Below are positions 10,075 through 64,000 of a stretch of DNA of 64,000 nt, piece after piece. The position numbers and the translations under genes were made by a program. Source of the DNA: a bacterium (lineage in GTDB: Bacteria; Zhuqueibacterota; Zhuqueibacteria; Residuimicrobiales; Krinioviventaceae); the NCBI GenBank assembly GCA_963675755.2, contig CAXXMD010000001.1, forward strand, positions 256,001-320,000, read 5' to 3'. Numbering within the stretch: position 1 is the stretch's first letter; each line of letters opens with the position of its first letter. Below the pieces are notes generated by a model. That model did no database searches, was not told the origin of the DNA, and saw only the letters and a program-made list of their open reading frames with translations.

Positions 10075-10140
10075 GTTAATCTCACAGTTTGAAATTGTTT
10101 GTTTTGGAATTTAAAAAAAAGTTAGCAAAATATTTTTTAT

Positions 10141-11511: not shown

Positions 11512-11650
11512 AGTGTACCCCTGTCATTGTAATATTCTTGATATTGAAGATTGATTTATATCCCCCGATATTTCGTTTAGCCCGGAAAAGTTAAATATTC
11601 ATTGATTGTTTATTTCAAACTCTTTTCGTTCTTGAAAAGTTCCCCGTAAC

Positions 11651-16068: not shown

Positions 16069-16099
16069 AAAAAGCGGCTTGATTCAAGCCGCTTTTTTT
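16067..16099. terminator. Bidirectional intrinsic terminator
   Basis: A7-GCGGCTTGA/TCAAGCCGC-T7 between convergent genes. Confidence 0.9.
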
Positions 16100-16109
16100 A
16101 TGTGCTAAA

Positions 16110-18392: not shown

Positions 18393-20720
18393 TTATTTGC
18401 GCCAAAAATAAGTTAGTTTTAACATTAATGCGCGGTTTGAAACCAGGCCATCTGATGCGCCGAATAATCTGGTATCGTTATAAACAATATAGAAATCACT
18501 ACCGGGACGATATGTCCATCTAAACAACAAATTTGCAAGAGATATACGATCTCCATCATTGTTTAATTTATCATCATTAAACTGGATATATGCTTTCAGG
18601 TACATTTTGGTTGAAAAATAGTAATACAATCTGCAGCTAAATGTTTGTGCTTGAAAATCACCTTCAGGTAAACTGACATAATTAATATCAAAATTAAATT
18701 CAGCGTTCATTCTGTTAATCGATGTTGATACAATTTCCGGTGCCATAGAGAACCGGGTGCCTGTAAAATAATCACCATACGTCATTCTTAACCGACCAAA
18801 TAAATCCTTACTTTCATCAGTTTGCATGAATAAAAATGAACTCAAATCATCATAGGTTTCCATGGGGATAATAAAACCCGGGCGGACTTCCCAATCTTCG
18901 TCAATAAATTCTTTTTTATGGGCAAGTCCGGCATATATAAAACCACCATTTTGAAATCGCACTCCGATCATGGAGCTTATTTCAGCTTCCAGCATTTTAT
19001 CCTTTTGATCTGTCAGATATGACAGTTCGGTTTGCCATCTGTACTGACGAATTGATTTAAATTTATGAGAGCGGGGAGAAAAATCAATTTCACTAGCTGT
19101 ATTTTTGATGCCAGTTCGGCGTATGTAACCCATTTCTGCGTTGAAATTTTCCTGAATATTTAAATGTGAAAATGCAACATCAAGCAGATCAGAATCAAAT
19201 GCAGCACCCAGATTGCCGGCAAGATTATCTTCATCCATTTTATAGAATTCATCATCTTCGGTATAATCCGGACCCAGTGTTTGAGCGATAGAACCGTTAA
19301 TTTTAAATCTGTCTGTAATTGGGAAATTGCCATCGAATCCTACAGAACGATTGTAAAATGTACTGTCTATTTGTTCTTTATTAAGAAACATCATACCAAT
19401 ACTGGATCGTTTCAGGATATCACGACGCAGCCGAAAAACTGTAAAGTTGCTGGATTTGAAATTCTTCCATTCTCCTGTGCTTTCAGAAGCATTTTCATCA
19501 TCATTGTCATCGTCGTCATCATCCTCGTCGTAAATATTGATTTCATCTGTTAACACATTTATCAAACCCATTTGATATTTTCCTGATTTACCAAATAACT
19601 TTACACCATTATTTATGGGTTGCTGAAATCCGTCTTCAATACCAATTCTTCTGCTGTAAAAGAGCCGAATACCATTGCTTGGCCCTCTACCGCTGATACT
19701 TTGCCCACCAAAATTAAAGATTTCCGCTCCGTCAAGAAAGAAATCTCTTTTCTCCGGAAAGTAGAGAGAGAATCGCGTAAGGTTAACGCGCTCCTGGTCT
19801 GCCTCAACTTGTGCGAAATCCGTGTTCCAGGTAAAGTTCATGGAAATATTGGAGGTGATATTAAATTTTGACTCGAATCCCCAATTGCCTTTTGTTTCAA
19901 GATCAAAATTTGTATTGGCATCTTTGGTGGCGCTTGAGAGTAAATAAGGTTCAATTTCCAGATTTCCCCCGGCTTGCATACCACTCAAGCCGGTGAGGGT
20001 ACCCGCTTGTGAGACACGAAAAAATCCCATTCTGCCAGCATCACGAGGTACAAGCTGCCAAAAATCAGTTTCATTTTTGCGACGAATTTCTCTGGAAAAG
20101 TTAATTCCCCATGTTAAAGAATCACCTTTGCCAAATCGCAGGGTTTTCCATGGAATGGCAATTTCTGCGAACCAACCCTGATCATTAATTTGTGTTTCGC
20201 ATTCCCAAATTCCATTCCATTCAGAATTGTAACTGGTACCTTCATCCCCAAAGGTAGCATCTCTTCTACATCCATTTGGATTGATATTGAAATAGAACCC
20301 GTTCCTGCGATCATTAAATGTATCGAAAACTATTCTGAAATTATCGTCATTGTCAAGATGCGCATCTCTACGCATTTCACGAGCAATGATTTTATCAGGT
20401 TCTTTGTCAAAACATTTAATGGCTATATAAAGTTTGCTTTGATTATAAAGTAGTGCAATTTTTGTATCTTCTGTTGCAGGATCACCTACATCAGGTTCAC
20501 GTTGTATAAAGTTGCCAATAAATTGAATTTTCTCCCATTCTTCTTCATCTATTTTTCCATCAATATTTAAAAAAGATTGAATTTGTGTAGCTGAAATGTT
20601 TCGAAAGGGAATGGTAAAGTCTCTGTGTTCGTTTGACAAGTCTTGTGCAGCGTGTAATTGAAATAAAAATCCCCATAAAACTATGATTAGACATACTAAT
20701 CCGAATACTACCCGTTTCAT
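18393..20720 (-). CDS. CBM9-like + DUF5916 outer-membrane-type protein with acidic loop
   Basis: IDGKIDEEEW, WFAEIAIPWKTLRF, NTDFAQVEAD, FPEKRDFFL, LFYSRRIG, RWTYRPGSDFYIVYN. Confidence 0.82.
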   Translation of the reverse strand: MKRVVFGLVCLIIVLWGFLFQLHAAQDLSNEHRDFTIPFRNISATQIQSFLNIDGKIDEEEWEKIQFIGNFIQREPDVGDPATEDTKIALLYNQSKLYIAIKCFDKEPDKIIAREMRRDAHLDNDDNFRIVFDTFNDRRNGFYFNINPNGCRRDATFGDEGTSYNSEWNGIWECETQINDQGWFAEIAIPWKTLRFGKGDSLTWGINFSREIRRKNETDFWQLVPRDAGRMGFFRVSQAGTLTGLSGMQAGGNLEIEPYLLSSATKDANTNFDLETKGNWGFESKFNITSNISMNFTWNTDFAQVEADQERVNLTRFSLYFPEKRDFFLDGAEIFNFGGQSISGRGPSNGIRLFYSRRIGIEDGFQQPINNGVKLFGKSGKYQMGLINVLTDEINIYDEDDDDDDNDDENASESTGEWKNFKSSNFTVFRLRRDILKRSSIGMMFLNKEQIDSTFYNRSVGFDGNFPITDRFKINGSIAQTLGPDYTEDDEFYKMDEDNLAGNLGAAFDSDLLDVAFSHLNIQENFNAEMGYIRRTGIKNTASEIDFSPRSHKFKSIRQYRWQTELSYLTDQKDKMLEAEISSMIGVRFQNGGFIYAGLAHKKEFIDEDWEVRPGFIIPMETYDDLSSFLFMQTDESKDLFGRLRMTYGDYFTGTRFSMAPEIVSTSINRMNAEFNFDINYVSLPEGDFQAQTFSCRLYYYFSTKMYLKAYIQFNDDKLNNDGDRISLANLLFRWTYRPGSDFYIVYNDTRLFGASDGLVSNRALMLKLTYFWRK

Positions 20721-20937
20721 TACTTCTCCTGGGAGATTAATTCTTTTCCTACTTCCATCTTAATATATAAAAAACATAAATTAAATAATGTAAAAAATTG
20801 TAAGTATTTTGTTTTGTTTCTTTGATGTGATAATAATTTTTTATATTTTAGTAGATTAAAATTTAAATATTAAGTTTAAATATTAGAATTTAGTATTTTT
20901 ATTTTTCTTTATTAAAAATATATAGGAGCTTGAGGAA

Positions 20938-22401
20938 ATGAGTGGAATAACACGAAGAGATTTTGTGAAAAATTCCGTTGGTGCTGGTATCGCATTATCC
21001 TTATCCAGTGCTTCAATGTCTAAAGTATTAGGTGCAAATGATACTATCAATATGGCTGTCATCGGTATACGAAGTAAAGGTGCACAACATATAAATGTTT
21101 TTCATGAATTACCAAATGTGAATGTTGTTGCATTGTGTGATGTTGATAAAGAAATTTTGGATCGAGAAGTTAAAAAATTTACAGATCGTGGTGAAAAAGT
21201 CAAGGCATATACCGATTTCCGCAAGGTATTAGATGACAAAGATGTAGATGCTGTATGTATTGCAACTCCCAATCACTGGCATTCATTAATATCTATTATG
21301 GCTTGCCAGGCAAAAAAAGACGTTTATGTTGAAAAACCCATTTCTCACAATGTGTGGGAGGGACGTCAACTGGTCAAAGCTGCTCAAAAATATAAACGAA
21401 TAGTACAGGCAGGAACCCAAAACAGATCTGATGTGGGTTTGCGTGAAGTTTGGCAATACCTGAATGATGGTGGTATTGGTAAAATTAAAGCTGCACGCGG
21501 ATTTTGTTATAAACGAAGAGCAAGTATTGGTAAAGTAGCCGGACCTCAACCTATTCCTTCTACAGTTGATTATGATATGTGGAGTGGTCCCTCAGCGTTG
21601 CAACCACTGATGCGTGAAAGTTTACATTATGATTGGCATTGGCAATGGCATCAGGGTAATGGTGATTTAGGCAATCAGGGAATTCACGAAATGGATTTGT
21701 GCCGCTGGTTCCTGGGTGCTGATGGATATCCCAAAAATGTTATGAGTATCGGTGGACGTCTTGGTTATGATGATGATGGTACCACTGCAAATACACAGCT
21801 TATCTTGATGGAATATGAGCAAGCTCCAATTCTGTTCGAAGTACGCGGACTACCTACTAAAAAAGGTGAATCGGGTATGGACAATTATAAAGGCATTCGT
21901 ATCGGTGTTGTTATTGAAGGAGAAGACGGTTATTTTGCCGGTGGTCGCGGTGGCGGCTGGATTTATGATAATGCCGGTAAAAAAGTTAAACAATTCAAAG
22001 GTGATGGTGGCGGTACCCACCAGGCTAATTTTATTGATGCTGTAAGAAGCCGCAAAACCAGTGATTTAATTGCGCCAGTAATTGAAGGTCATTTGTCTTC
22101 TGCTTTGTGTCATCTTGGAAATATTTCATACAGACTGGGCGAAGAAACCCCAACTGAAGATATTAAAGAAGCAATAAAGTCTGAAAAATTACTGCCAGAA
22201 GGATTCTATAGAATGCAGGATCATTTGTTCCAGAATTGGGTGGACTTGAAAGAAACACCGGCAAAACTTGGACCTAAATTGACCTTTGATTCCGCTTCAG
22301 AAAAATTCATTTCAAATGAAAAATATGATAGTGGATACTGGGCAAATACCATGTTGAAACGTAAATATCGTGAACCTTTTGTAGTTCCTGAAAAGGTTTG
22401 A
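20938..22401 (+). CDS. Tat-exported Gfo/Idh/MocA NAD-dependent oxidoreductase
   Basis: TRRDFVK, IATPNHWH, VYVEKP, GTQNRS, GNQGIHEMD. Confidence 0.92.
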   Translation: MSGITRRDFVKNSVGAGIALSLSSASMSKVLGANDTINMAVIGIRSKGAQHINVFHELPNVNVVALCDVDKEILDREVKKFTDRGEKVKAYTDFRKVLDDKDVDAVCIATPNHWHSLISIMACQAKKDVYVEKPISHNVWEGRQLVKAAQKYKRIVQAGTQNRSDVGLREVWQYLNDGGIGKIKAARGFCYKRRASIGKVAGPQPIPSTVDYDMWSGPSALQPLMRESLHYDWHWQWHQGNGDLGNQGIHEMDLCRWFLGADGYPKNVMSIGGRLGYDDDGTTANTQLILMEYEQAPILFEVRGLPTKKGESGMDNYKGIRIGVVIEGEDGYFAGGRGGGWIYDNAGKKVKQFKGDGGGTHQANFIDAVRSRKTSDLIAPVIEGHLSSALCHLGNISYRLGEETPTEDIKEAIKSEKLLPEGFYRMQDHLFQNWVDLKETPAKLGPKLTFDSASEKFISNEKYDSGYWANTMLKRKYREPFVVPEKV

Positions 22402-22418
22402 GCTATAGAGTAATTTAC

Positions 22419-22453
22419 AAGCCGGTTGCTTAAAAGTAACCGGCTTTTTTTTT
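22419..22453 (+). terminator. Intrinsic terminator
   Basis: AAGCCGGTTGCTT/AAGTAACCGGCTT stem plus long T-run. Confidence 0.85.
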
Positions 22454-22526
22454 ATTTTCTACAGCTACCAGGGGGAAATCAAACTGTTTTATTCTGATTT
22501 CCAAGTTTTAAATATATTTTAACAAC

Positions 22527-22544
22527 TGTGATGTGATGTGATGT
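22527..22544 (+). repeat. (TGTGA) pentamer tandem repeat, about 3.6 units
   Basis: TGTGATGTGATGTGATGT immediately upstream of a -35 box. Confidence 0.7.
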
Positions 22545-22550
22545 TTTTTA

Positions 22551-22584
22551 TTGCATTTTTCAATATTTTATTGTATGATACAAT
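22551..22584 (+). promoter_or_regulatory. Promoter with overlapping GntR-type operator palindrome
   Basis: TTGCAT-17 bp-TATGAT; ATTGTAT-G-ATACAAT (22570-22584) covers the -10. Confidence 0.7.
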
Positions 22585-22587
22585 GTT

Positions 22588-23601
22588 ATGAAAAGTATGC
22601 CCGTATATAAAAGACTGTTTGAGAATTATAAGCAGGCTATTCTTACCCAGCAATATGCTCCGGGTTCAAGGATTGATTCAATTAACAGCATGATGGATCG
22701 ACACCGCGTATCCAGAGAGACCGCCAAGTTGGTATTGAATCTTTTAGCACAGGAAAAGTTAATTGAAAAGATTGCTGGTAAAGGATCTTTTGTTGCTGAT
22801 CTGGGTCCCAGAAAACCGGTTTGGGGTGTGATTGTACCATTCTTGTCTGCTCAGATTGATGACCTGCTGCTACATTTAGGTAGATTTGCAAGTGATGCTG
22901 GTAACCGTCTTGAATGTTTTGTGGATTATAACAGTTGGCAGGAAGAAATTCGTTTAACCGGTACCCTGATCAATCAGGGATATGAAGCAGTCGTGGTTAT
23001 TCCAACTTTTGATGAGCGTAAAACTGCCTCATTTTATCAAAATCTCGTCTCTGGTGGAACTGTTGTAACTTTACTGGATCATACTATGGCGGGTTCTTAT
23101 TTTACCTATGCAATTCAGAGTTATGATCTGGGAGTAAAGCGTGCAGCGCAATATCTTGATAAAAGTGATGGAAAACTCGCATTTGTAAAAAATGCCATGT
23201 GGGCCGGACGTAATATGGTGCAGGAAGTAATGGAAGAAACGTTTAAAACTTTTAACGGCACTGAAAATACAAAGGTAGTGGATCGATTTGATATTATTAC
23301 CCCTGATTTTATAGAAAAAAATAATATAAAAGGATTGTTTTGCTGTGATGACATTGATGCAATCCGAATTGTTGGCAGATTAAAAGAAGCCGGATTAGTA
23401 TTTCCTGATGATATATCCATTGTCAGTTACGGGAATACAGATATGGCAAAATATTTTACCCCAAGCATTACTTCGGTTGATTGTCACAATGAACAATTGG
23501 CCCTGAAAACATCAGAAATCATAATAAACTATCGCAATGGAATTGATGTTTCAAAAAGTCAGTATGTCATACAACCAGAGCTTGTAGTACGTGAAACCTA
23601 A
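22588..23601 (+). CDS. GntR wHTH + LacI-type sugar-binding domain transcriptional regulator (AraR-like architecture)
   Basis: Y.PGSRI.S...VSRET...L...GKGSFV N-terminus; C-terminal FPDDISIVSYGN, PSITSVD, PELVVRET. Confidence 0.9.
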   Translation: MKSMPVYKRLFENYKQAILTQQYAPGSRIDSINSMMDRHRVSRETAKLVLNLLAQEKLIEKIAGKGSFVADLGPRKPVWGVIVPFLSAQIDDLLLHLGRFASDAGNRLECFVDYNSWQEEIRLTGTLINQGYEAVVVIPTFDERKTASFYQNLVSGGTVVTLLDHTMAGSYFTYAIQSYDLGVKRAAQYLDKSDGKLAFVKNAMWAGRNMVQEVMEETFKTFNGTENTKVVDRFDIITPDFIEKNNIKGLFCCDDIDAIRIVGRLKEAGLVFPDDISIVSYGNTDMAKYFTPSITSVDCHNEQLALKTSEIIINYRNGIDVSKSQYVIQPELVVRET

Positions 23602-23613
23602 GCAGGTAAAAAA

Positions 23614-24975
23614 ATGAATAGTAGAGATCTTGTAATAAATGCGATACAAAGAAAGCCTATTGAGCGAGTACCCTGGGTACCTTTTGTGGGTGTGCATGGC
23701 GCCGCATTGCTGGGTACAGATGCAAAAACATATTTATATTCTCCGGAAATGATATTTCAGGGAGCCAAGCTTGCTGTAGAAAAATATCATGCTGATGGCC
23801 TGCCGGTTACCTTTGACCTGCAAATTGAACCGGAATGTCTGGGTTGTGAATTAAAATGGAACGATAAAAATCCACCTGCCGTTGTAACTCATCCATTGAC
23901 TGCCGGTGTCAAGTTGGAAGATTTAAAAGTACCGGGCCCTGATGATGGACGAATTCCAATTGTAATGGAAGCTGCTCGCAAGATTCGTAAAGAATTCCCG
24001 GATATTGCACTTTATGGATTGGTTGCAGGTCCTTTTACCCTGGCACTTCATTTATTGGGCACAGAAGTATTTATGAAAATGTTTGATTCTCCGGAATATG
24101 TTTATTCAGTCCTGGAATTCTGTTCGCAAGTTACCATGGCAATGACCGATTATTATTGTGATGCCGGATGTGATATTATTGCGGTTGTTGATCCCATGAC
24201 CAGCCAGATTGGTGAGGACCAATTCAGGCAATTTGTTACAAAACCTGCCACCATCGTATTTGATCATATTCGTGCCAAAGGAAAGTATTCGTCCTTTTTT
24301 GTTTGCGGGCATGCGCAGCATAATATTAAAGCCATGTGTGAATGTGGGCCGGATAATATTTCAGTTGATGAAAACGTTCCTCTGGATTATGTAAGAGATA
24401 TTGCCAAAGCTCACAATATCAGTATGGGGGGAAATTTAAAACTGACTGTAGTACTGTTGTTTGGTGATCAGGTTGATTCACAGCAGAATGCAATGCGCTG
24501 TATACAACAGAGTGAGGGAGAAGGCTTTATTCTTTCACCAGGCTGCGATTTGCCCTTTGATACGCCTCCTGAAAATTTGGCTGTGGTAGGAAATCTTGTC
24601 CGTGATCCTTATCAACAACAGGTTGTGCTCAGTATGGCTGCCCACGCCGAGGATGATGACCTTCCGGATTTGAGTAATTATGGTACTGATGGGCCAGTAC
24701 AGATTGATATCATAACACTGGACTCTGAATCTTGTCCGCCTTGTCAATATATGGTTGAAGCTGTGCAGCGGATTATTCCCGAATTTCATGGCAAAGCTGA
24801 ATGGCGCGAGCACCCCATAAAAGAACCGGCAGCAGTCAAATTTATGAAAGCGCTGGGAGTAAAGAATATACCCACTATATGTATTGATAGTAAACCGGCG
24901 TTTGTTTCCATCATTCCCAAAAGAGATGAGCTCATGCAGGCAATTCAAGATCGTATTGATGAGAAAAAGGTCTAG
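23614..24975 (+). CDS. UroD/MtaA (methylcobamide methyltransferase-like) family protein fused to a C-terminal thioredoxin-like domain
   Basis: MNSRDLV..AI...ERVPWVP, GPFTLA, GGN, ILSPGCDLP.DTPPEN; C-terminal SCPPCQYM and GVKNIPTICID. Confidence 0.85.
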   Translation: MNSRDLVINAIQRKPIERVPWVPFVGVHGAALLGTDAKTYLYSPEMIFQGAKLAVEKYHADGLPVTFDLQIEPECLGCELKWNDKNPPAVVTHPLTAGVKLEDLKVPGPDDGRIPIVMEAARKIRKEFPDIALYGLVAGPFTLALHLLGTEVFMKMFDSPEYVYSVLEFCSQVTMAMTDYYCDAGCDIIAVVDPMTSQIGEDQFRQFVTKPATIVFDHIRAKGKYSSFFVCGHAQHNIKAMCECGPDNISVDENVPLDYVRDIAKAHNISMGGNLKLTVVLLFGDQVDSQQNAMRCIQQSEGEGFILSPGCDLPFDTPPENLAVVGNLVRDPYQQQVVLSMAAHAEDDDLPDLSNYGTDGPVQIDIITLDSESCPPCQYMVEAVQRIIPEFHGKAEWREHPIKEPAAVKFMKALGVKNIPTICIDSKPAFVSIIPKRDELMQAIQDRIDEKKV

Positions 24976-24982
24976 GTAGAGC

Positions 24983-25894
24983 TTGGCAGATTCAATTAAA
25001 ATACCATTCTTTCTGGTTACCGGATTCCTTGGCAGTGGAAAAACCAGCTTTTTAAAGCGCTTTCTTTCCATATATTCAAAACATTACCGGATTGCCATTG
25101 TGCAAAATGAATTTTCATCAGTTAATATTGATGGAAAAGAATTGCATCATATCGACAAATCGGTCAAGATTGTAGAGATGAATAACGGTTCTGTTTTTTG
25201 TGTTTGCATGATCTCGGATTTCAAACAAACGTTGCATGATCTTGTAGATCATAAAGTTTTTGATGCAATTATTGTTGAAGCAACGGGCTTGGCTGACCCT
25301 ATTGCGGTTACACAGGTTTTTCATGATCCTTTTCTTGCAGAAAATTTGTATCTTGCACATATCTGGACGATAGTGGATGCCGAAAATTATTCTAAAATTG
25401 AAAAGATAAAAAGTGCGGAACGACAAATTCGTTTTGCAGATACTATCATCTTGAACAAAATGGACCGATTTACAGGAGATGTAGAGGCTCTGACTCTAAA
25501 CGTGGCCCAAATGAACAAGACTGCAAATCTGGAATTAGCGGAATTTAGTAATGTATCCCTGCCAGATGATTTATCCTCTATACTTGCGGTTCCTGTTAAA
25601 GATAAGAAATTGAGTGGTATACCTGCTAAACGTCCGGCAGTTGATACCATTGTAATCAAAGATGAAAAAAGTATTACCCGGCAACAATTTGAAATGTTTA
25701 TCAACAAGATTAAAGGGAATATATATAGATTAAAAGGTTTTTTGAAAATGGATGGAAATACTTTTCTGATTCAAAAAACATTTGGACAAATTGAATATAA
25801 TCAATTACATTACAATAATAATACTGAACTGATTATTATAGGCACTGATCTGGATAATGAAAAGGTTCAGCAGTTATGGCAAGATCCACTCTGA
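24983..25894 (+). CDS. COG0523/CobW-family metallochaperone GTPase
   Basis: TTG start; VTGFLGSGKT, QNEF, NGSVFCVC, VEATGLADP, LNKMD, IYRLKGF. Confidence 0.9.
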   Translation: MADSIKIPFFLVTGFLGSGKTSFLKRFLSIYSKHYRIAIVQNEFSSVNIDGKELHHIDKSVKIVEMNNGSVFCVCMISDFKQTLHDLVDHKVFDAIIVEATGLADPIAVTQVFHDPFLAENLYLAHIWTIVDAENYSKIEKIKSAERQIRFADTIILNKMDRFTGDVEALTLNVAQMNKTANLELAEFSNVSLPDDLSSILAVPVKDKKLSGIPAKRPAVDTIVIKDEKSITRQQFEMFINKIKGNIYRLKGFLKMDGNTFLIQKTFGQIEYNQLHYNNNTELIIIGTDLDNEKVQQLWQDPL

Positions 25895-25934
25895 TAATAA
25901 AACAATAAATAAATAAATACAACTAGAGGTCGAC

Positions 25935-26600
25935 ATGAGTGAAATGATTGAAATTTTGGCAACTTGTATTGAACGTGGTAAAGTAGACAAAAACTCTCCA
26001 TTTCCTCCGGATTTAAAAGATCAGGATGGTGCGGATGAATATGCAAAAAAGGCAGTAGATGATGGATTGGCACCAGATGATATATTAAAGGCCTGTATGA
26101 TTGGTATGCAGCGAATTGGTGAAAAATTCAGCAAAAACCAGGCTTTTGTGCCTGAATTATTAATGTCAGCCAAAGCGATGAATGCTGTTATGGTACATTT
26201 GCGTCCATTTTTTCAAAGCGGCAGTGTTAAACACAAAGGTACTTTTATTGTGGGTACTGTTACAGGTGATCTGCACGATATTGGTAAGAATCTGGTAGCC
26301 ATGGTTATAGAAGGTAATGGCTGGCAGGTTGTTGATTTGGGTGTTGATGTTTCTGCTGATAAATTTGTAAATGCTGTTAAAGAATATCCCAATTGTGTTG
26401 TAGGACTTAGTGCGTTACTTACAACGACCATGGTAAATATGGAATCCATTATTCAGGCAATTAAAAATGAAAATCCTGATGTACCGGTTATTGTTGGCGG
26501 AGCACCATTGTCTCAGGATTTTGCCAATAAAATCAATGCAGATGGTTATGCTTCCGATCCACATAATGCTGTTCAGTTAATTTCTAAATATGCTGCCTAA
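25935..26600 (+). CDS. Corrinoid (B12-binding) protein of the MtaC/MttC type
   Basis: Cap domain GM.RIGEKF...FVPELLMSA; DLHDIGKN (DxHxxG), SALLTTT, VGGAP. Confidence 0.93.
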   Translation: MSEMIEILATCIERGKVDKNSPFPPDLKDQDGADEYAKKAVDDGLAPDDILKACMIGMQRIGEKFSKNQAFVPELLMSAKAMNAVMVHLRPFFQSGSVKHKGTFIVGTVTGDLHDIGKNLVAMVIEGNGWQVVDLGVDVSADKFVNAVKEYPNCVVGLSALLTTTMVNMESIIQAIKNENPDVPVIVGGAPLSQDFANKINADGYASDPHNAVQLISKYAA

Positions 26601-26613
26601 TCTCTTCCCTTTT

Positions 26614-26641
26614 GCCCCTGTAACAAACAGGGGCTTTTTTT
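26614..26641 (+). terminator. Intrinsic terminator closing the corrinoid operon
   Basis: GCCCCTGT-AACAA-ACAGGGGC plus T7. Confidence 0.85.
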
Positions 26642-26705
26642 CCGTTAATATTAACAATTAAATAAAAAATATTGGAATTCATTGCTGAATTGTTAAATTT
26701 CAATA

Positions 26706-26721
26706 TTGAATTCGTATTCAA
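26706..26721. promoter_or_regulatory. Candidate operator TTGAAT-N4-ATTCAA (copy 1)
   Basis: TTGAATTCGTATTCAA just downstream of TTGGAA-16-TAAATT; second copy at 31069. Confidence 0.5.
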
Positions 26722-26764
26722 AGCTATATTTGAATTGTACCCAGACACTGTCAGGAGGAACAGG

Positions 26765-29020
26765 ATGATCAAATCCATTTTTCGTATTACTCTAGTATTG
26801 CTGTTGTTTATTTCCGTTTCATTTTCACAAAGTATTTATGATAAATTTGTGACATCTGAAAAACCTTCTACCCCTGTAGACTATGTTGATCCTTATATTG
26901 GCGGCATCAGCCATACATTACAGCCAACTCGTCCTACAGTGCATTTACCGCTGTCAATGATCCGGTTGCTTCCTAATTTTTCATCACAGATCCCGGACAT
27001 TTATCTTGCTTCACGAATTGAAAGCTTTTCAATAAACATACCTTCCCATCGTGAACCCTACGTTTCAAGTATTATGGCGTTAACCGGTGATTCCAAAGTT
27101 GATGAATATACCGGTACCAAATTCGATCATGATTTTGAAAAAGTAACTCCCTATTTATATTCAGTTCTCCTGGAAGATGAAAACATAATTGCAGAATATT
27201 CTCCCGCTCATAAAGCGCAAATGTTTCGTTTTCAGGCATTGGATGACAAACCCGTATCTGTATTGCTTACATTCAAAACCAGTGCACAGATCAAGATATT
27301 GGATGATAAAACCCTTACAGGTTATGAATCTTTTAAAGATATGAAGCAATATTTCTATTTGCAATTTGATCAACCCATGGATCTGCAATACAGTAACGCG
27401 CAGGCCAAAGATGATCAATATGCCGGTGATAATATTCAGATCCAATGTGTTTTTAAAAATCCAAAATCCAATACAGTTCTCGTAAGAACAGGTATCTCTT
27501 ATATCGATGACGACCAGGCTAAAGAAAATCTTGTCAAAGAGATTAACCATTGGGATTTTGATCGTCTGGTTTCAGATGCCAAAGCCGAGTGGAATAAAAC
27601 TTTGGGGAAAATATCTATAACCGGTGGTACAGTGGACCAAAAAGTTGTATTTTACACCTCTCTTTATCGTTGTATGGAACGTATGGTAAATATAAACGAA
27701 TATGGACGTTATTACAGTGGTTTTGATGACAAGGTCCACAAAGATGATCGCGCTTTTTATGTAGATGATTGGGTATGGGACACCTATCGTTCCCTGCATC
27801 CATTGCGTCTTTTAATTATGCCGGATGTGGAACAGGATATGGTCCAGTCTTATGTTACCATGTATGAACAAAGCGGATGGGTACCCAGTTTCCCCAAAGT
27901 ATATGGTGATTACGGAGCAATGATTGGCCATCACCAGGCAGCTTTGATTACCGATACTTATTTTAAAGGATACCGTAATTTTGATGTAAAAACTGCCTAT
28001 GAAGGATTGAAAAAGAATGCAATGGAAGGAACCATGATTCCATGGCGTGAAGGACCTACAACTGTATTGGATGATCATTACAGAAGTCATGGTTATTTCC
28101 CGGCAATTGGTCCTGATGAAGAAGAAACCATTCCTGAAGTTCATAGCTTTGAACGACGTCAAGCAGTTGCGGTTACTCTTGAACATGCACATGATGATTG
28201 GTGCTTGTCCAATCTGGCAAAAGAGTTGAACAAGGATGATGATTATGAAATGTTTAAAAAACGTGGACAAAATTATCGCAATCTGTTTAATCCTGAAATA
28301 GGATTTATGGCTCCCAAAGATATCAACGGTAACTGGATTCAGCCGTTTGATCCCAAAATGTCCGGAGGAATTGGCGGCCGTTTGTATTATGCCGAAATGA
28401 ACAGCTATACCTATACCTGGTATGTTCCACAGGATATTGATGGTTTGACCGAACTTTTGGGCGGCAAAGATGCGTTTGTAAACAAGCTTGATGCCATGTT
28501 TGAAGAAGGCTTTGGTCGTATAAAATGGCGCCACTTTGCTCAATTTCCGGATGCTACCGGTATGGTTGGTCAGTTTTCTATGGGTAATGAACAAAGTTTT
28601 CATATCCCTTATCTTTATTCTGTTCAAGGTGTTGCCTGGAAATCTCAGAAACGTGTTCGTCAATTGATGGATCAATGGTTCCGTAATGATTTAATGGGCG
28701 TAAGTGGTGATGAAGATGGTGGTGGTTTATCTTCATTTTATGTGTTCAGTGCATTGGGTTTTTACCCGGTATGTGCTGGTAACCCGGTTTATTATATTGG
28801 TACTCCATTGTTTAAAACGGCTATTCTGGATATGGGTAACGGTAAAAAACTGGAACTGGTTGCCAACAATGTTTCTGACCAGAATAAATACATCCAGTCT
28901 ATGAAACTCAATGGCAAAACGTGGAATAAAGCCTGGTTTAATCATAAAGATATTAAAGATGGCGGCAAGATCGTCTTTGAAATGGGCCCCCGTCCCAATA
29001 AAAGCTGGGGCACCAAATAA
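26765..29020 (+). CDS. GH92 family alpha-mannosidase-like glycoside hydrolase
   Basis: Signal peptide, YVDPYIG, WDTYRSLHPL, YAEMNSYTYTWYVPQD, MGNEQSFH, GDEDGGGLS; SD AGGAGG. Confidence 0.92.
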   Translation: MIKSIFRITLVLLLFISVSFSQSIYDKFVTSEKPSTPVDYVDPYIGGISHTLQPTRPTVHLPLSMIRLLPNFSSQIPDIYLASRIESFSINIPSHREPYVSSIMALTGDSKVDEYTGTKFDHDFEKVTPYLYSVLLEDENIIAEYSPAHKAQMFRFQALDDKPVSVLLTFKTSAQIKILDDKTLTGYESFKDMKQYFYLQFDQPMDLQYSNAQAKDDQYAGDNIQIQCVFKNPKSNTVLVRTGISYIDDDQAKENLVKEINHWDFDRLVSDAKAEWNKTLGKISITGGTVDQKVVFYTSLYRCMERMVNINEYGRYYSGFDDKVHKDDRAFYVDDWVWDTYRSLHPLRLLIMPDVEQDMVQSYVTMYEQSGWVPSFPKVYGDYGAMIGHHQAALITDTYFKGYRNFDVKTAYEGLKKNAMEGTMIPWREGPTTVLDDHYRSHGYFPAIGPDEEETIPEVHSFERRQAVAVTLEHAHDDWCLSNLAKELNKDDDYEMFKKRGQNYRNLFNPEIGFMAPKDINGNWIQPFDPKMSGGIGGRLYYAEMNSYTYTWYVPQDIDGLTELLGGKDAFVNKLDAMFEEGFGRIKWRHFAQFPDATGMVGQFSMGNEQSFHIPYLYSVQGVAWKSQKRVRQLMDQWFRNDLMGVSGDEDGGGLSSFYVFSALGFYPVCAGNPVYYIGTPLFKTAILDMGNGKKLELVANNVSDQNKYIQSMKLNGKTWNKAWFNHKDIKDGGKIVFEMGPRPNKSWGTK

Positions 29021-29060: not shown

Positions 29061-29112
29061 GCTGTTTTGATAAACGATACATTTCACTCTTTACCTGCTG
29101 CAAGAGTTGGTT

Positions 29113-30972
29113 ATGAAAAAATTATTTCTGTTAATACCATTTCTTCTTTTGTCTTGTCATAAACCTGTTGAAAATATAAATTTCAAATCCGCTTGTATTG
29201 AAACTTTGACAGTTTTTACTGACACCTTGATTGATTTACAAATTAAAAATCCCAATAGTCCTGATTATGGTGCAATACAGTGTCATGCTTGTGATGTGCT
29301 GCATACTAGAGCAGCTGAAGCTGTCTTTCCCTTTGTTGTGCGTTACCAGGAAACCGGGGATGAAAAGTGGCTCGATGCGGCTATCCGTTTGGGGAATTGG
29401 CTTATTCAACAGCAGCAATCCGATGGTTCCTGGAAAGAAACACCGGAAGAGTGGACCGGTACAACAACCGATCAGTTGTTAATGCTGCTGAAAGCATGGC
29501 CCGTATTAAAAACAAAATTAAATCCTGATGAAATAACAGCCTGGCAGCAGTCAATGATAGACGCAGCAGGTTTTTTGGTAAAGGAAATGAGTCCTGATTT
29601 TGCCAGTATAAATTATTGTGCAACAACAACAGCAACACTTGCATTGATGAATGAGCATTTTCCCGATGCACGCTATCTTGATAAAGCCGGACAATTGGCT
29701 TTTCAGGTTTTATCTAAAATGAATGATGATGGATTTATTTGTGCCGAGGGAGACCGTGTTTATGGTGTTAAATATGGAGCGGATGTTGGATATGAAATAG
29801 ACATGTCGTTGTGGGGTCTTGGCATGTATGCCAAAATCACAGGTGATACCCTCACAGAAAGTTATGTTACAGAATCTTTAAAGAACCATCTTGCTTTTGT
29901 ATATCCTAATGGAGCTATTGACGGCTCATGGGGGATACGTTCAAACAAATGGACAACTTTTGGCAGTGAAACTGCAGATGGCTGCCAGGTGTTATTTGCA
30001 ATGTTTGCGGACAAAGATCCACGTTATATACGTGCTGCTTTTCTTAATTTACAATATTTGAATGGTATGATACACAACGGGCTGTTAGGATACGGCCCCC
30101 AATATTTTGAATTGTTCGATAAACCCCCTTGCATATATCCTACTTTTGTCAGATCCAAAAATCTGGCAATGGCTGCGAGTATGGATCTAGATGTTGTCGA
30201 TATTTCATCCAGACTTTATTCTGAACAACCCGGATTTTTTAAATTTTACCCGTCAGTAGATGTTGCTTTGGTTCGTACAAAAGAATTTATGGCTACAGTA
30301 ACTTCATATGGATATGAAGAATTAAAAAAACGAAATAAAAGCAAGTATATGCATCGTCCAACAGGTGGGTCCATATCCAATCTTTGGGTTAAAGATCATG
30401 GCTTTTTGCAGTTATCCAGCCAGACAGAATATCATCGCTGGGAGCCCATGCATTTTCCTGAAATTGGAGATGTATTGCCATTAACCTCCCGGATTGAGTT
30501 TACCAATGAGAATGGGTATTTTACCAATTTGTATGAATATGATGCAAGGATGGATGTAGATAAAGATAGCAATAGTATTACAATAGCTGGAGAGTTGAAA
30601 AATAACATGTTGCTGCAGGGTGGTGTTGCCTACAAGTGGCAATATTCATTTTCTGATAATGCTATTGTGAAAAATGTACATTTACGATACCACGATGGAA
30701 CAAGAAATGTGAAAATTATTGAACCGGTAATTTTGATTGATGGATTAACTATTGAACAAAAAGATGAAAAAACTGTGAATATTAAAGGACCCCATAAAAC
30801 TATACAGCTCAAAGTACTTGAAGGCTCTGTAACACTCGAGAGTGGTGTTGATAAAGAAAAGTACTGGGCTGCTTTTCCATCTGTAAAAGCATATCCACTG
30901 GTATTAAAGGTAAATTGTCCAAAGGATCAATTCAGACAATCTGTTCGTTATGCGATTCAGGTTTTGCACTAG
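29113..30972 (+). CDS. Hypothetical lipoprotein, probable (alpha/alpha) toroid + beta-sandwich carbohydrate-active-like fold
   Basis: Lipobox LLSC; CHACDVLHTR; TGDEKWLDAAIRLGNWL..QQ.SDGSW repeat typical of six-hairpin folds. Confidence 0.65.
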   Translation: MKKLFLLIPFLLLSCHKPVENINFKSACIETLTVFTDTLIDLQIKNPNSPDYGAIQCHACDVLHTRAAEAVFPFVVRYQETGDEKWLDAAIRLGNWLIQQQQSDGSWKETPEEWTGTTTDQLLMLLKAWPVLKTKLNPDEITAWQQSMIDAAGFLVKEMSPDFASINYCATTTATLALMNEHFPDARYLDKAGQLAFQVLSKMNDDGFICAEGDRVYGVKYGADVGYEIDMSLWGLGMYAKITGDTLTESYVTESLKNHLAFVYPNGAIDGSWGIRSNKWTTFGSETADGCQVLFAMFADKDPRYIRAAFLNLQYLNGMIHNGLLGYGPQYFELFDKPPCIYPTFVRSKNLAMAASMDLDVVDISSRLYSEQPGFFKFYPSVDVALVRTKEFMATVTSYGYEELKKRNKSKYMHRPTGGSISNLWVKDHGFLQLSSQTEYHRWEPMHFPEIGDVLPLTSRIEFTNENGYFTNLYEYDARMDVDKDSNSITIAGELKNNMLLQGGVAYKWQYSFSDNAIVKNVHLRYHDGTRNVKIIEPVILIDGLTIEQKDEKTVNIKGPHKTIQLKVLEGSVTLESGVDKEKYWAAFPSVKAYPLVLKVNCPKDQFRQSVRYAIQVLH

Positions 30973-32101: not shown

Positions 32102-33334
32102 ATGAAAAAAATATTTTTGATTATTTTTCTCTTGTTGTTCTTTCAGCAGCTTTATTCACATAATGTGGGAGAGGTCCTTCCGCAATGGTCTGAAGGATAT
32201 CTGGATATACACCATATCAATACGGGCAAGGGAGAATGTGTATTGTGTATATTGCCCGATGGTACTACGTTGTTGATTGATGCCGGAGCAACCAATCGAC
32301 CCAAACCCCGAGTAACAGACCCCAGACCTGATGGTAGCAAAACACCCGGTGAATGGATTACCAGATATATAAATCACATGCTTTCTTTCAAGTCTGATAT
32401 AATGCTGGATTATGTTTTACTTTCTCATTTTCACGATGACCATATGGGTAGTATAACAGATCAATCTCCCTTATCCCAAAATGGAAACTATCGATTGTCC
32501 GGATTGACTGAGGTGGGAGATTATATACCAATTAAAAAATTAGTGGATCGTGCCTGGCCGGATTATAATTATCCGTATCCGCTCAAAAGCCGGATGATTG
32601 AGAACTATCGCCAATTTCTTGACTGGCATATGGAAAATACCGGGTTGATTGCAGAAAAAATTATCCCCGGAAGTAATGAGCAATTTTTATTGAAAAATGA
32701 TCCTGCAACATATCCGGGATTTGAGATCAGAAATGTTGCCGCAAATGGCGAGGTGTGGACGGGGGTTGCAAATAATACCCGACATCATTTTCCTCCCATT
32801 GAAACTTTGGATAAATCTCAATTTCCTTCAGAAAATATGTGCAGCAGCGCAATAAAAATTTCTTACGGTAGTTTTGATTATTTTAATGGAGGCGATATAA
32901 CCGGTGTGCTTGATGAAAATTCTCCCGTATGGAGAGATGTTGAGACTCCGGTAGCAAAAGCTGTGGGTCCAGTTGAAGTGAACGAGTTGAATCATCATGG
33001 TTATACCGATTCTGAAAACGCGTTTTTTGTGAGCACACTTGCTCCTCAGGTGCATATATTACAGGTTTGGTCGCCAAGCCATCCCACAATGCGCGTATTG
33101 CGTCGGTTACTGTCCACAGATCTGTATCCCGGTCCCCGGGATATTTTTGCAACCAATATGATGCAGGAAAACAATGTCGTAATAGGCAGCAACCTGAGTA
33201 AATTGAAAAGTGATCAGGGACATATACTCGTAAGAGTTGAACCCGGTGGCGATTCTTTTCATATCATTATTCTGGATGATGCTGCTGAGAGTTATAAAGT
33301 TAAATCCGTCCATGGGCCATACAAAAGCCGATGA
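32102..33334 (+). CDS. Exported metallo-beta-lactamase-fold hydrolase (ComEC/Pce-like)
   Basis: Signal peptide; LLIDAG, SHFHDDHMG (HxHxDH), GGD, NHHG. Confidence 0.85.
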   Translation: MKKIFLIIFLLLFFQQLYSHNVGEVLPQWSEGYLDIHHINTGKGECVLCILPDGTTLLIDAGATNRPKPRVTDPRPDGSKTPGEWITRYINHMLSFKSDIMLDYVLLSHFHDDHMGSITDQSPLSQNGNYRLSGLTEVGDYIPIKKLVDRAWPDYNYPYPLKSRMIENYRQFLDWHMENTGLIAEKIIPGSNEQFLLKNDPATYPGFEIRNVAANGEVWTGVANNTRHHFPPIETLDKSQFPSENMCSSAIKISYGSFDYFNGGDITGVLDENSPVWRDVETPVAKAVGPVEVNELNHHGYTDSENAFFVSTLAPQVHILQVWSPSHPTMRVLRRLLSTDLYPGPRDIFATNMMQENNVVIGSNLSKLKSDQGHILVRVEPGGDSFHIIILDDAAESYKVKSVHGPYKSR

Positions 33335-62318: not shown

Positions 62319-63017
62319 ATGAAGAAATTAATTTTTGCAATGCTTGTAATGGTTTTATTGTTCCTGTCATCATGTTCACAACAACCAGAGTGGAAACCGT
62401 TATTTGATGGAAAAACATTCGATGGCTGGAGAGGACTGAATCGTACAGCTATACCGGATTCCGGATGGGTAATTGAAGACGGTATGATTAAATGTAACGG
62501 TGTACCCGGAAGTGGTGATATCATTACTGAAAAAGAATATGGACAATTTGAATTTAAATTCGAATGGAAAATGATCACCAAGGGCGGCAACAGTGGAATC
62601 AAATATTTTGTTGTTGAAGAGCTTAGCACAGGTCATGGCGGTATAGGACTGGAATTTCAACTTCTTGATGATTTAAACCATCCCATGATGCAGGAAGGTA
62701 CCATGAAGCCCAATGACTTTCATACTACCGGTGCATTGTATGAATTGTATGCCCCCAGTGAGGATAAGGTGTTGCATCACTATGGCGAATGGAACACTGG
62801 AAAAATCGTTTCAAAGGGGAATCATTTGGAGCACTGGTTGAATGGAAAACTGGTAATGGAGTGTGAACGCGGCAGCGATGATTTCCAGGCAAGAGTTGCA
62901 AAAAGTAAATTTAATAAATATCCGGATTATGCATTATCAGAAACCGGCCATATATTGATACAAAACCACAGCAGTCAAACGGTATTACGAAACCTCTACA
63001 TTCGCGAATTAAAGTAA
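62319..63017 (+). CDS. DUF1080 (3-keto-disaccharide hydrolase family) lipoprotein
   Basis: Lipobox LSSC; WKPLFDGKTFDGW, GGNSGIKY, EFQLLDD, GEWN, EHWLNG, GHILIQNH. Confidence 0.92.
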   Translation: MKKLIFAMLVMVLLFLSSCSQQPEWKPLFDGKTFDGWRGLNRTAIPDSGWVIEDGMIKCNGVPGSGDIITEKEYGQFEFKFEWKMITKGGNSGIKYFVVEELSTGHGGIGLEFQLLDDLNHPMMQEGTMKPNDFHTTGALYELYAPSEDKVLHHYGEWNTGKIVSKGNHLEHWLNGKLVMECERGSDDFQARVAKSKFNKYPDYALSETGHILIQNHSSQTVLRNLYIRELK

Positions 63018-63026: not shown

Positions 63027-64000
63027 ATGACTTCAAGAGAACGATTGCTAACGGCGCTGAATCATCAGGAACCTGACCGGGTACCAATTGACCTTGCCAG
63101 TGTGCAGGTAACCGGGATTTCTGCCATTGCCTATAACAGATTAAGAGAGTATTTGGGATTGGATGCTCGTGAACCTCAGATTTGTGATGCAATTCAACAA
63201 ATCTGCATCCCTCACGATGATATATATGATAAATATGGTATAGATACACGGGGCCTTTGGCCGTTAATGAACCATATGGATTTTACCGATACCGATGAGG
63301 GTGAATATCTTGCTCATATTGATGAATGGAGCTTTGCCTATCGTCGTAAAAAAGATGCTTTTTGGTATGATCTATACAAATCTCCCATGGAAAATGATAC
63401 GCTTTCAGCAGAATTGATTGATAAATTTTCTTTCCCAAAAGGTGATGAAAAACGACGCATAGAAGGGCTTAAAGCTCAGGCACAGGCATATCGGGATCAG
63501 GGATATGCAGTCGTTTTGAAAAGTATTTGTGCCGGATTGTTTGAAATGATGATACGGCTGCGGGGAATGCAGAATGCCATGATCGATCTCATGATGGACC
63601 CTGTAAACTCGGGGAAATTAATAGATCGTATTCTACAGCATAAAATAGAGTTTTTTGAGATGGCACTCGATGAACTGGGTGATCTGGTGGATATTGTTGC
63701 AGAAGGAGATGATTTTGGAACTCAGGCTTCACAATTGATTTCGCTGGATACCTGGCGTGATATTTTCAAACCTCGTCAGGTTGAACTGATTCAGACCATG
63801 CATAAAAAAGCGCCCAATGCCAAAGTGTTTTTTCATTCCTGCGGTAATATTCGTCCGTTTTTGCCCGAGTTTATCGAAATGGGAATCGATATCATCAATC
63901 CCGTGCACATAACCGCAGACGGTATGGAGCCTAAGCAGCTCAAAAAGGATTTCGGCAAGGATGTTGTGTTCTGGGGTGGAGGCGTAGATACCCAGGGCAC
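63027..64000 (+). CDS. UroD/MtaA family protein (3' truncated by window)
   Basis: MTSRERLLTALNHQEPDRVPIDL, LRGMQNAMIDL, GDDFGTQ...LIS, FFHSCG, NPVH, LKKDFG...FWGGGVDTQ; frame open to the window end. Confidence 0.88.
   Translation, partial: MTSRERLLTALNHQEPDRVPIDLASVQVTGISAIAYNRLREYLGLDAREPQICDAIQQICIPHDDIYDKYGIDTRGLWPLMNHMDFTDTDEGEYLAHIDEWSFAYRRKKDAFWYDLYKSPMENDTLSAELIDKFSFPKGDEKRRIEGLKAQAQAYRDQGYAVVLKSICAGLFEMMIRLRGMQNAMIDLMMDPVNSGKLIDRILQHKIEFFEMALDELGDLVDIVAEGDDFGTQASQLISLDTWRDIFKPRQVELIQTMHKKAPNAKVFFHSCGNIRPFLPEFIEMGIDIINPVHITADGMEPKQLKKDFGKDVVFWGGGVDTQG

Follow-up and report, generated by a model that had tools for sequence, protein, structure and literature searches.

Why does an operon for cobalamin-dependent methyl transfer lie inside a glycan locus, and does it act on the sugars of that locus? 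We addressed this question in a stretch of 64,000 nucleotides from a bacterium of the family Krinioviventaceae (contig CAXXMD010000001.1, positions 256,001 to 320,000; the whole stretch is called the window here), where four genes encode a GntR-type regulator, a UroD/MtaA-like protein fused to a thioredoxin-like domain (MtaA-Trx), a COG0523 GTPase, and a corrinoid carrier protein. An earlier note, made from the sequence alone, had read them as a corrinoid methyl-transfer module under a sugar-sensing regulator, possibly stripping O-methyl groups from sugars without oxygen. With moderate confidence, we propose instead that the operon is a regulated unit and that it encodes the constant part, or core, of a cobalamin methyl-transfer cassette that is widespread but uncharacterised and that in relatives is joined to a homocysteine module. 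The core would consist of a MetH/MtaC-type carrier, MtaA-Trx, a dedicated COG0523 GTPase, and an AraR-like cassette regulator.

The operon and its partners in related loci

The four genes lie on the + strand. The regulator (22588..23601, 337 aa; Pfam GntR and Peripla_BP_3) is followed by MtaA-Trx (23614..24975, 453 aa; Pfam match to the UroD family and one CxxC thioredoxin-like domain), the COG0523/CobW-family GTPase (24983..25894, 303 aa, TTG start; cobW and CobW_C), and the corrinoid (B12) carrier (25935..26600, 221 aa; B12-binding_2 and B12-binding), with gaps of 12, 7, and 40 nt in gene order. A terminator-like hairpin stands at either boundary on the + strand: the one on the 5' side (22419..22446; 12-pair stem with 6 GC pairs, then a T run) ends the upstream oxidoreductase gene, and the one on the 3' side (26614..26634; 8-pair stem with 6 GC pairs, then a T run) precedes a glycoside hydrolase family 92 (GH92) gene. 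These were the strongest and longest two terminator-like hairpins in a scan of 20700-27000, in which 7 sites were observed against 4.9 ± 2.2 in shuffled sequences, so that the hairpin set as a whole is not significant. Signal peptides are absent from all three methyl-transfer proteins, and the flanking GFO-type oxidoreductase carries a twin-arginine leader. These features support a cytoplasmic location of the predicted methyl-transfer proteins and co-transcription of their genes. The open reading frame (ORF) listing, the Pfam scan, and the hairpin scan confirmed the four genes and the tight operon bounded by hairpins that had been described in the earlier note, and the domains, the DxHxxG motif, and the operon structure agree with its call of a corrinoid methyl-transfer module.

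The partners of the operon were then counted in 80 related loci, whose ORFs were clustered together with the window proteins; cluster representatives were scanned with Pfam, and the annotation was carried to the members. In the systematic batches, a cluster was scanned if one of its members lay no more than 8 kb from the anchor, i.e., the MtaA-Trx relative, and if its representative had at least 150 aa. Three loci (L052, L069, and L073) had no anchor ORF of at least 430 aa and were excluded from the counts, leaving 77, and the full-flank set consisted of the 50 in which the sequence extends for 5 kb or more on each side; the count took in partners up to 6 kb from the anchor and other classes up to 8 kb. 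A COG0523 gene was found in 65 of the 77 loci (49 of the 50 full-flank loci), a corrinoid protein in 60 (43), and a homocysteine-binding S-methyltransferase (PF02574) in 51 (38). A soluble protein of about 235 aa with a weak match to PF02965, the MetH activation domain, was present in 22 loci (17), an additional UroD paralogue in 20 (17), MetA, a Cys/Met pyridoxal phosphate enzyme or MetRS in 4 (4), and RACo in 2 (1). The PF02574 proteins scored 174-192 bits against the homocysteine region of MetH and also matched BHMT and YitJ-type proteins; at least 95% of 52 sequences retained the NCG and GGCCG motifs. The module is conserved together with the homocysteine-binding methyltransferase and the MetH-activation-like protein, not with carbohydrate-active enzymes (CAZymes). 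Gene content, motifs, operon structure, and the conservation of the partners and of the upstream element described below are direct observations.

The CarA protein encoded in the window shares 73-84% identity with proteins assigned to candidate division KSB1, to which the organism probably belongs. The most complete comparison was given by L001, from a KSB1 relative. Here the regulator, MtaA-Trx, CobW, and the corrinoid protein are encoded in the same order as in the window and are followed by UroD, the homocysteine methyltransferase, the activation-like protein, and a further UroD; this second half of the cassette is missing from the window. A cobalamin riboswitch (L001 5769-5963, 115.7 bits) stands before a TonB-dependent receptor gene, directly 5' of the regulator and the cassette. 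It was the only match in an Rfam scan of six related loci, which contained no SAM riboswitch, and the same scan of the window gave no family at the gathering score. Among the scanned neighbour representatives of the related loci, no pterin-binding protein was found. Judged by its domains, the cassette in relatives looks like a dismantled methionine synthase, in which UroD-family enzymes would replace the folate domain.

Other features of these loci were recorded as well. At least 95% of the activation-like proteins in the 22-locus cluster (for instance, L012 13433-14140 and L001 15332-16051) contain NR.SPGYC.W and a C-terminal Y.C..C....C, the latter of which hints at a metal or iron-sulfur site. 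To our knowledge, this cysteine motif is not part of the MetH activation domain. MetA (homoserine O-succinyltransferase) is encoded about 7-9 kb downstream of the anchor in L053, L075, and L076 (Prolixibacteraceae/Odoribacter), and the Cys/Met enzyme was counted within 8 kb of the anchor in L075. A membrane protein with FrdA and FrdB downstream of many Prolixibacteraceae cassettes proved to be a fumarate-reductase operon (FrdCAB) and was set aside as lineage synteny.

The regulator showed the AraR-type architecture, with an N-terminal GntR helix-turn-helix (31.6 bits, cutoff 27) and a C-terminal PBP1-type domain (Peripla_BP_3, 58 bits). Its matches in the PDB were weak and of the LacI family, with AraR 3TB6 at E 4.6e-7, and the PBP1 domain was weakly similar to sugar, purine, and nucleoside sensors, PurR and CytR being among the matches in NCBIfam and the PDB. 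PBP1 domains bind purines and nucleosides in addition to sugars. Orthologues with 43-65% identity were found in L001, L009, L012, and L021, the highest value being that of L001; in L001, L009, and L012 the orthologue heads the cassette, and L009 and L012 contain no CAZymes. Upstream of the window gene, 45 nt 5' of its start codon, we found an operator-like 16-mer with three tandem TGATG, GTGATGTGATGTGATG (22528..22543, + strand). Exact copies lie 222 nt upstream of the orthologue in L001 (8648-8663) and 112 nt upstream of that in L021 (3695-3710), and a copy with 2 mismatches lies 48 nt upstream of that in L012 (7181-7196); beyond those, only one further match with up to 2 mismatches was detected on both strands of 1.38 Mb. 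The (TGATG)3 element occurs in KSB1, Chitinivibrionales, and Bacteroidia loci and is followed on its 3' side by a T-rich stretch and then TTGCA or TTGACA, and it is probably the operator of the regulator or a part of the promoter. Because the orthologues and the element recur across phyla, also in loci without CAZymes, the regulator and its predicted operator belong to the cassette, in three or four phyla, and not to the glycan genes. The proposal that the regulator senses the sugars of the locus was, therefore, not borne out.

The family itself is large. At least 5114 of 8000 scored candidates were relatives of MtaA-Trx at E ≤ 0.001, with a top identity of about 62%, and the pair of MtaA-Trx and COG0523 occurs in at least 562 species-level genomes, as at least 562 of 593 pattern-matched stretches of species-representative genomes encode an MtaA-Trx relative. 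The 80 loci analysed came mostly from Bacteroidota (Prolixibacteraceae, Porphyromonadaceae, and Cyclobacteriaceae), and also from KSB1, Calditrichia, Planctomycetota, Chitinivibrionales, Verrucomicrobiota, and SAR324. A quick maximum-likelihood tree of the anchors largely tracked phyla, the 62 Bacteroidota rows forming one clade. In the literature searched, subscription journals and bioRxiv supplements excluded, there was no account of the cassette, of a corrinoid-dependent sugar demethylase, or of a UroD-thioredoxin fusion.

Core proteins and the proposed methyl transfer

MtaA-Trx matched the Pfam family URO-D over residues 3-330 (212.7 bits), and its best solved relative is MtaA (4AY7, E 4.6e-26), in agreement with a UroD TIM-barrel fold. 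Its match to Thioredoxin_3 was below the Pfam cutoff (21.6 against 24.8 bits), and the call of a thioredoxin-like domain is backed by CPPC at residues 374-377 and by homologues carrying PF13192. The top 119 relatives, besides the window's own protein (P0001), have 535-550 aa and a second thioredoxin-like domain that is mostly devoid of Cys; all 77 related anchors measure 520-580 aa. Forms of 451-461 aa with one such domain occur in remoter clades, with 34-44% identity. The zinc-site positions of the window protein are Phe229, Cys231, His233, and Cys311; we take the MtaA positions aligned to them to be zinc ligands, in part on the basis of PMC10418091. Thus, the second Cys is kept, and the His-x-Cys...Cys triad of the MtaA/CmuA family is not found.

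The zinc sites separate the UroD proteins of these loci into three classes. Class 1, the anchors, has FFVCG in 78 of 78 sequences, followed by His (70) or Gln (8), and PGCD in 77 of 78, the single exception being an alignment gap; remoter relatives show x-F-x-C-G-D. The two zinc-site Cys and many active-site residues were invariant over 46 sequences of the MtaA-Trx family. Class 2 (332-343 aa), whose genes lie between those for the corrinoid protein and the anchor in eight loci, has the canonical H-x-C...C, and class 3 (UroD2, 357-428 aa), which includes a second UroD gene of the window at 63027, has H-S-C...His, the full-length members showing His-x-Cys...His; L001 also encodes a UroD with H-T-D (His-x-Asp). 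According to the accessible text of the Kountz and Balskus preprint (PMC10418091), His-Cys-Cys marks S-methyltransferases, and O-methyltransferases have carboxylates or non-ligands in place of Cys. Since MtaA-Trx keeps two zinc-site Cys, i.e., the S/Se type under this rule, it would not be a typical O-demethylase, and the other UroD classes are the better candidates for such an activity. MtaA-Trx may act as a donor- or thiol-side methyltransferase, as an S/Se-type enzyme, or as a docking and redox maintenance factor. Two distant relatives, whose UroD domains share 31-34% identity, have other fusions: P0363 (880 aa) combines a UroD domain that has lost both motif-1 ligands with a 2Fe-2S ferredoxin (Fer2) and a RACo ASKHA domain, and P0322 (544 aa) combines a UroD domain with canonical H-x-C with a B12-binding cap and a Rossmann domain. 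A search for fused forms of at least 794 aa gave no match at E ≤ 1e-20, although the evidence from it is weak.

CxCC, or GCxCC, is the defining metal-binding motif of COG0523 proteins. The window GTPase matched cobW (136.5 bits) and CobW_C (44.2 bits), with YjiA (1NIJ) as the PDB match, and has the P-loop GFLGSGKT at residues 14-21; at the position of GCxCC it shows FCVCM (residues 72-76; window 25196-25210), and the consensus of its subfamily is FC[VAI]C[LMTV]. The missing third Cys may reflect a metal or client other than that of the zinc-chaperone subfamilies. In its accessible part, the study of Haas et al. (PMC2770081) describes a COG0523 subfamily co-localised with corrinoid methyltransferases and COG0523 genes clustered with mta genes. 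The corrinoid protein contains the cap (B12-binding_2, 54.4 bits), the Rossmann domain (B12-binding, 94.8 bits), and DxHxxG as DLHDIG at residues 112-117. It scored below the cutoffs of TIGR02370 (pyl_corrinoid; 167.3 against 215.3 bits) and of NCBIfam MtgC_2 (182.7 against 370 bits), and its PDB matches were 1Y80, 7XCN_M, 4JGI, and MetH.

From these features we infer the catalytic steps, the direction of transfer, and the donor. A donor-specific UroD-family enzyme would methylate Co(I) on the carrier, and the methyl-Co(III) would be discharged onto a thiol, which in relatives would be homocysteine, yielding methionine. In the window genome, this last step could fall to MtaA-Trx or to a homocysteine module encoded beyond the 64 kb. 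The COG0523 GTPase would service MtaA-Trx or the carrier by inserting a metal or cofactor, and the donor in this genome may be sugar-derived, via the UroD2 gene beside a DUF1080 gene. The best-supported picture is one in which homocysteine would be the acceptor in most lineages, the donor side would be made up of exchangeable UroD-family enzymes, and the window would hold the core only.

Several observations weigh against this picture. The homocysteine module and the activation domain were absent from the window in both searches made: the Pfam scan of 39 ORFs of at least 150 aa found no S-methyl_trans, Pterin_bind, RACo, MtaB, or MttB, and tblastn with the homocysteine methyltransferases, activation-like proteins, and RACo proteins of relatives gave nothing significant. 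It had been stated before that a reactivase, a MetH-like acceptor, and a known methyltransferase I (MT1) were lacking here, and this holds; the relatives carry acceptor and reactivator genes, so such partners exist for the cassette, though none in this window. MtaA-Trx scored below the cutoff of the MtaA/CmuA family (TIGR01463; 156.6 against 235.4 bits) and of NCBIfam MtaA_Meth (130.9 against 400 bits), the zinc-ligand His of MtaA is Phe229 (H-I-C aligns to F229-V-C231), and the second thioredoxin-like domain of the relatives has been lost, with no remnant detected by tblastn in the window. Of 66 sequences of the COG0523 subfamily, 65 have no third Cys in the CxCC motif. The fusion of a degenerate-site UroD domain to RACo in P0363 implies that such domains can be docking modules and not catalysts, and several non-Bacteroidota loci have the pair of MtaA-Trx and COG0523 without a nearby corrinoid protein. 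Finally, the terminal branch of the window protein is the longest in the tree (0.62) and belongs to the other clade, of 14 rows; the protein may be decaying or doing something else.

The glycan locus and the link to sugars

The operon is adjoined on its right by a GH92 gene (26672-29020; Pfam) and on its left by a gene for a periplasmic GFO/IDH/MocA oxidoreductase (20938..22401, + strand; Pfam) with a RRDF signal of the twin-arginine translocation (TAT) type, which showed a partial match to a glycoside 3-dehydrogenase family (NCBIfam BT_2158_fam, 157.7 bits, cutoff 750). Moving outward on the left, this gene is followed by one for a DUF5916/CBM9 protein and then by another GH92 gene (16110-18371). 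It had been noted that GH92 genes and a sugar oxidoreductase flank the operon; both are in the locus, but only one GH92 gene is directly adjacent, as the GFO and DUF5916/CBM9 genes stand before the left one. The Pfam scan showed that the rest of the window is a glycan locus, as had been supposed, and that it is of the mannose (mannan) type, with four GH92, GH28, a GH63-like protein, BNR_4, an AGE-family epimerase, and ROK and PfkB kinases. A second GFO/IDH/MocA oxidoreductase with a TAT signal is encoded at 56550-57803, and a lipoprotein of the 3-keto-disaccharide hydrolase (DUF1080) family, with a signal peptide, at 62319..63017 (+ strand; Pfam, 149.9 bits). The presence in this locus of two twin-arginine GFO enzymes and the DUF1080 lipoprotein suggests a periplasmic 3-keto-glycoside route, i.e., oxidative glycoside cleavage.

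The UroD2-class gene mentioned above (63027..63998, + strand) starts 10 nt past the DUF1080 gene; it is divergent and has H-S-C at residue 270. The second UroD-family gene that had been reported at this position is, thus, real, though its match is weak (URO-D, 43.5 bits) and the gene is cut by the window end. The encoded protein was 36% and 28% identical to the UroD2 proteins of L007, which sit beside a cassette with DUF1080, GFO, and GH120-like genes. UroD2 was accompanied by DUF1080, GFO, GH120-like, and xylose-isomerase-like genes in L007, L034, and L063, and by GFO in L052, and window 62319-63998 repeats the UroD2-DUF1080 pattern of these loci. The UroD2 class tracks 3-keto-glycoside genes. 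The window UroD2 is a candidate donor-side methyltransferase, and sugar O-demethylation by this class is plausible. Chemically, such a reaction is no harder than the activation of methanol by MtaB.

The first alternative is that the module removes O-methyl groups, without oxygen, from methylated sugars that are released in the glycan locus around it, and passes them to the corrinoid protein; we consider this possible, although unlikely. It would fit the position of the operon amid the GH92, GH28, GH63-like, GFO, and DUF1080 genes and the company kept by UroD2, whose His-x-Cys...His site accompanies sugar genes in four loci, and the His-x-Asp UroD of L001 would be of the O type under the rule given in the accessible text of PMC10418091. 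Glycan-related genes were found within 8 kb of the anchor in 23 of the 50 full-flank loci, and in 11 of the 77 loci, from at least four tree clades, a glycan gene was part of the anchor's same-strand run (gaps ≤150 nt). In five Porphyromonadaceae-type loci, the run contained a GH172-like gene directly 3' of that for the PF02574 protein; in three Mariniphaga-type loci, it contained GH120-like, GH16, DUF1080, and GFO genes; in two loci, genes for a SASA esterase and a DUF5703 protein; and in one, GH3/GH97. Against this, 66 of the 77 cassettes have no glycan gene in their run, and the control for CAZymes, a distance control around the cassettes, was negative: the glycan share of non-core neighbours in successive 2-kb bins to 8 kb was 10, 9, 9, and 9%, which indicates no glycan enrichment with proximity, and GH92 was absent from all 80 related loci. 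The prediction that the cassette would be enriched near CAZymes was accordingly checked and not seen. Moreover, the regulator goes with the cassette, also in the CAZyme-free L009 and L012, the GFO and DUF1080 proteins are periplasmic whereas the methyl-transfer proteins are predicted to be cytoplasmic, and MtaA-Trx keeps its Cys-rich site. A link of the cassette to sugars is possible, and our preferred reading of the operon as a cassette core accommodates it on the donor side.

In two Bacteroidales loci, the gene for a large DUF5703 protein (L041 1130-3460 and L049 7602-9929) lies directly upstream of the anchor and is accompanied by one for a SASA-type esterase. In L020 such a protein (15484-17919) is encoded on the other strand, about 4 kb downstream of the anchor, with a GH20 gene on one side and a GH95 gene on the other, and L049 has pectinesterase, GH127, and GH78 genes nearby. 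In the window, the GC content of 6001-12000 is low (0.31-0.35 against about 0.39), and this segment, which may be acquired DNA, encodes, besides a hybrid histidine kinase/response regulator, two proteins of 465 and 456 aa that have no Pfam match. Four ORFs of 400-621 aa in the glycan locus (29107-30972, 32102-33334, 35600-36802, and 49795-51492) had no Pfam match at E ≤ 0.001; the second of these runs 98 nt into the start of a TonB-receptor-like ORF at 33237, so one of the two starts is probably miscalled. The fourth GH92 gene (45210-47249) is short (679 aa), its catalytic domain was matched as three separate stretches, and it may be a diverged or damaged copy.

Other explanations, known systems, and implications

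A second alternative, which we hold to be unlikely, is that the module handles methyl-sulfur or methyl-selenium compounds, such as methanethiol, dimethyl sulfide, methylmercaptopropionate, or methylselenides; the methyl group would go to another thiol, and the thioredoxin-like CxxC would manage the thiol or selenol product. The two zinc-site Cys of 77 of 78 family members speak for it, as the accessible text of PMC10418091 associates S/Se methyltransferases with Cys-rich sites and reports that an Mlp2 methylates selenide, yet without the canonical His the site does not form the His-Cys-Cys triad to which that rule refers. Among characterised proteins, the nearest relatives are the thiol methylases MtaA and MtpA, the latter acting on mercaptopropionate (10.1101/548461, as far as its accessible text describes it), and GntP-type carboxylate permeases lie beside 13 cassettes, and sulfur-transport and rhodanese genes in L079. 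In NCBIfam, the thioredoxin domain matched HUIPC, a family of thioredoxin-like (seleno)proteins, and the GTPase matched a CobW-related family of selenoproteins, but both matches were weak and far under the cutoffs. The system to compare is the type 1 mlp cluster, which in the available text of the preprint shares with the cassette an MtaA-like UroD and a corrinoid protein, lacks a folate methyltransferase, and is widespread outside methanogens. It has multiple UroD proteins, with His-Cys-Cys in Mlp2 and Mlp3, and a Ram/RACE activase, unlike the window operon, which has a single UroD gene, Phe-Cys-Cys, and no Ram/RACE; conversely, the cassette has the thioredoxin fusion, COG0523, and homocysteine-module partners. 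The family studied here occurs in Bacteroidota, KSB1, and Planctomycetota, including Cyclobacteriaceae and the planctomycetes Gimesia and Crateriforma. These last three groups are aerobes. Type 1 clusters, in contrast, are mostly from Firmicutes and, in the accessible text of PMC10418091, are reported in obligate anaerobes only; that text contains no CobW, COG0523, Bacteroid-, or GntR, and thioredoxin appears in one reference title only.

It is improbable, in our estimate, that MtaA-Trx and COG0523 form a B12 housekeeping pair without a catabolic role. By analogy with CblC/CblA-type processing or with a reductive activase, the MtaA-like domain would dock on the corrinoid protein or on free alkylcobalamin, and dealkylation, reduction, or loading of the cofactor would be the task of the dithiol domain and the GTPase. 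This explanation would account for the pair being the most constant part of the cassette (49 of the 50 full-flank loci) and standing alone in Planctomycetota, SAR324, and Calditrichia loci, and for the L001 riboswitch and TonB receptor directly upstream of the cassette. G3E GTPases do act as chaperones of B12 enzymes. In addition, RACo is nearly absent and the activation-like protein was found in just 22 of the 77 loci, so another reactivating function is needed, and the fusion in P0363 joins a degenerate-site UroD domain to just such components. However, thioredoxin-type dithiols lack the reducing power for Co(II)/Co(I) unless another reaction is coupled to it, and the invariant zinc-site Cys and active-site residues over 46 sequences resemble those of a catalyst. 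Least probable, and very doubtful, is that the window copy is a decaying or orphaned fragment with no role in the glycan locus: it has lost the second thioredoxin-like domain as well as the genes for the homocysteine and activation proteins, the 3' half seen in L001 is missing with the operon stopping at its terminator, MtaA-Trx has 453 aa instead of 520-580, and its branch is the longest, but all four ORFs are intact with CPPC, FFVCG, PGCD, the P-loop, and DxHxxG kept, the upstream element is exactly conserved, one-domain forms of 451-461 aa are natural clades elsewhere, and the missing genes may lie elsewhere on the contig.

The operon can be compared with several known systems. As in MtaA/MtaB/MtaC of Methanosarcina, a UroD-fold methyltransferase is encoded beside a DxHxxG corrinoid protein; the operon differs by the absence of MtaB and RamA, the Phe in place of the zinc-ligand His, and the fused thioredoxin-like domain. 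Coenzyme M is not expected in a bacterial host. The corrinoid protein matches the B12 domain of MetH, and relatives add PF02574 and the PF02965-like protein, as in split forms of MetH, whereas the window lacks the PF02574, pterin-binding, and PF02965 modules. Compared with MetH and MtgBCD, the donor side of the cassette is of the UroD and not the MttB family, and there is no folate module in the scanned neighbours. In the accessible text of PMC12478193, one corrinoid core of MtgBCD from Ruegeria pomeroyi serves both donor demethylation and methionine synthesis, and the corresponding parts of the papers on split MetH and folate-independent synthases (PMC7857596 and PMC13759103) mention no UroD, thioredoxin, or COG0523 partners. 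The three-component aryl O-demethylases of acetogens and Desulfitobacterium share a UroD-family methyltransferase I and a small corrinoid protein, that of D. hafniense (4JGI) being a good match to the window protein; the pterin-binding methyltransferase II and the activase are lacking in the window, with RACo in only 2 of the 77 related loci, and the known demethylases act on methyl ethers of aryl compounds, from which a phenolate leaves. A sugar ether, being of the alkyl type, would need Lewis-acid activation, as methanol does.

These results may bear on how methylated glycans are broken down. Methylated sugars block glycan breakdown, and the one demethylation route that we found in print is a P450, the 6-O-methyl-galactose demethylase that marine Bacteroidota encode inside polysaccharide loci, according to the accessible parts of PMC6292453 and PMC9400963. 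If the O-methyl-sugar explanation were true, this enzyme would be a functional analogue of the module, from which it differs in requiring oxygen, in releasing formaldehyde, and in belonging to an unrelated protein family. A more far-reaching proposal, tentative and on the whole unlikely, is an oxygen-independent B12 methyl salvage in bacteria of several phyla, in which exchangeable UroD-family enzymes, including UroD2, would demethylate sugar ethers set free in glycan loci, a shared carrier would pass the methyl groups to homocysteine for folate-free methionine formation, and MtaA-Trx with COG0523 would keep the carrier or its zinc enzymes functional. An anaerobic route of sugar demethylation would fill a gap in the carbon cycle of sediments and guts. 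Separately, the cassette, in at least 562 species-level genomes, would be a new methyl entry into methionine, and functions would be gained for a thioredoxin-fused MtaA homologue and for a COG0523 subfamily without the canonical CxCC. Cultivated carriers of the cassette exist in Mariniphaga and Maribellus.

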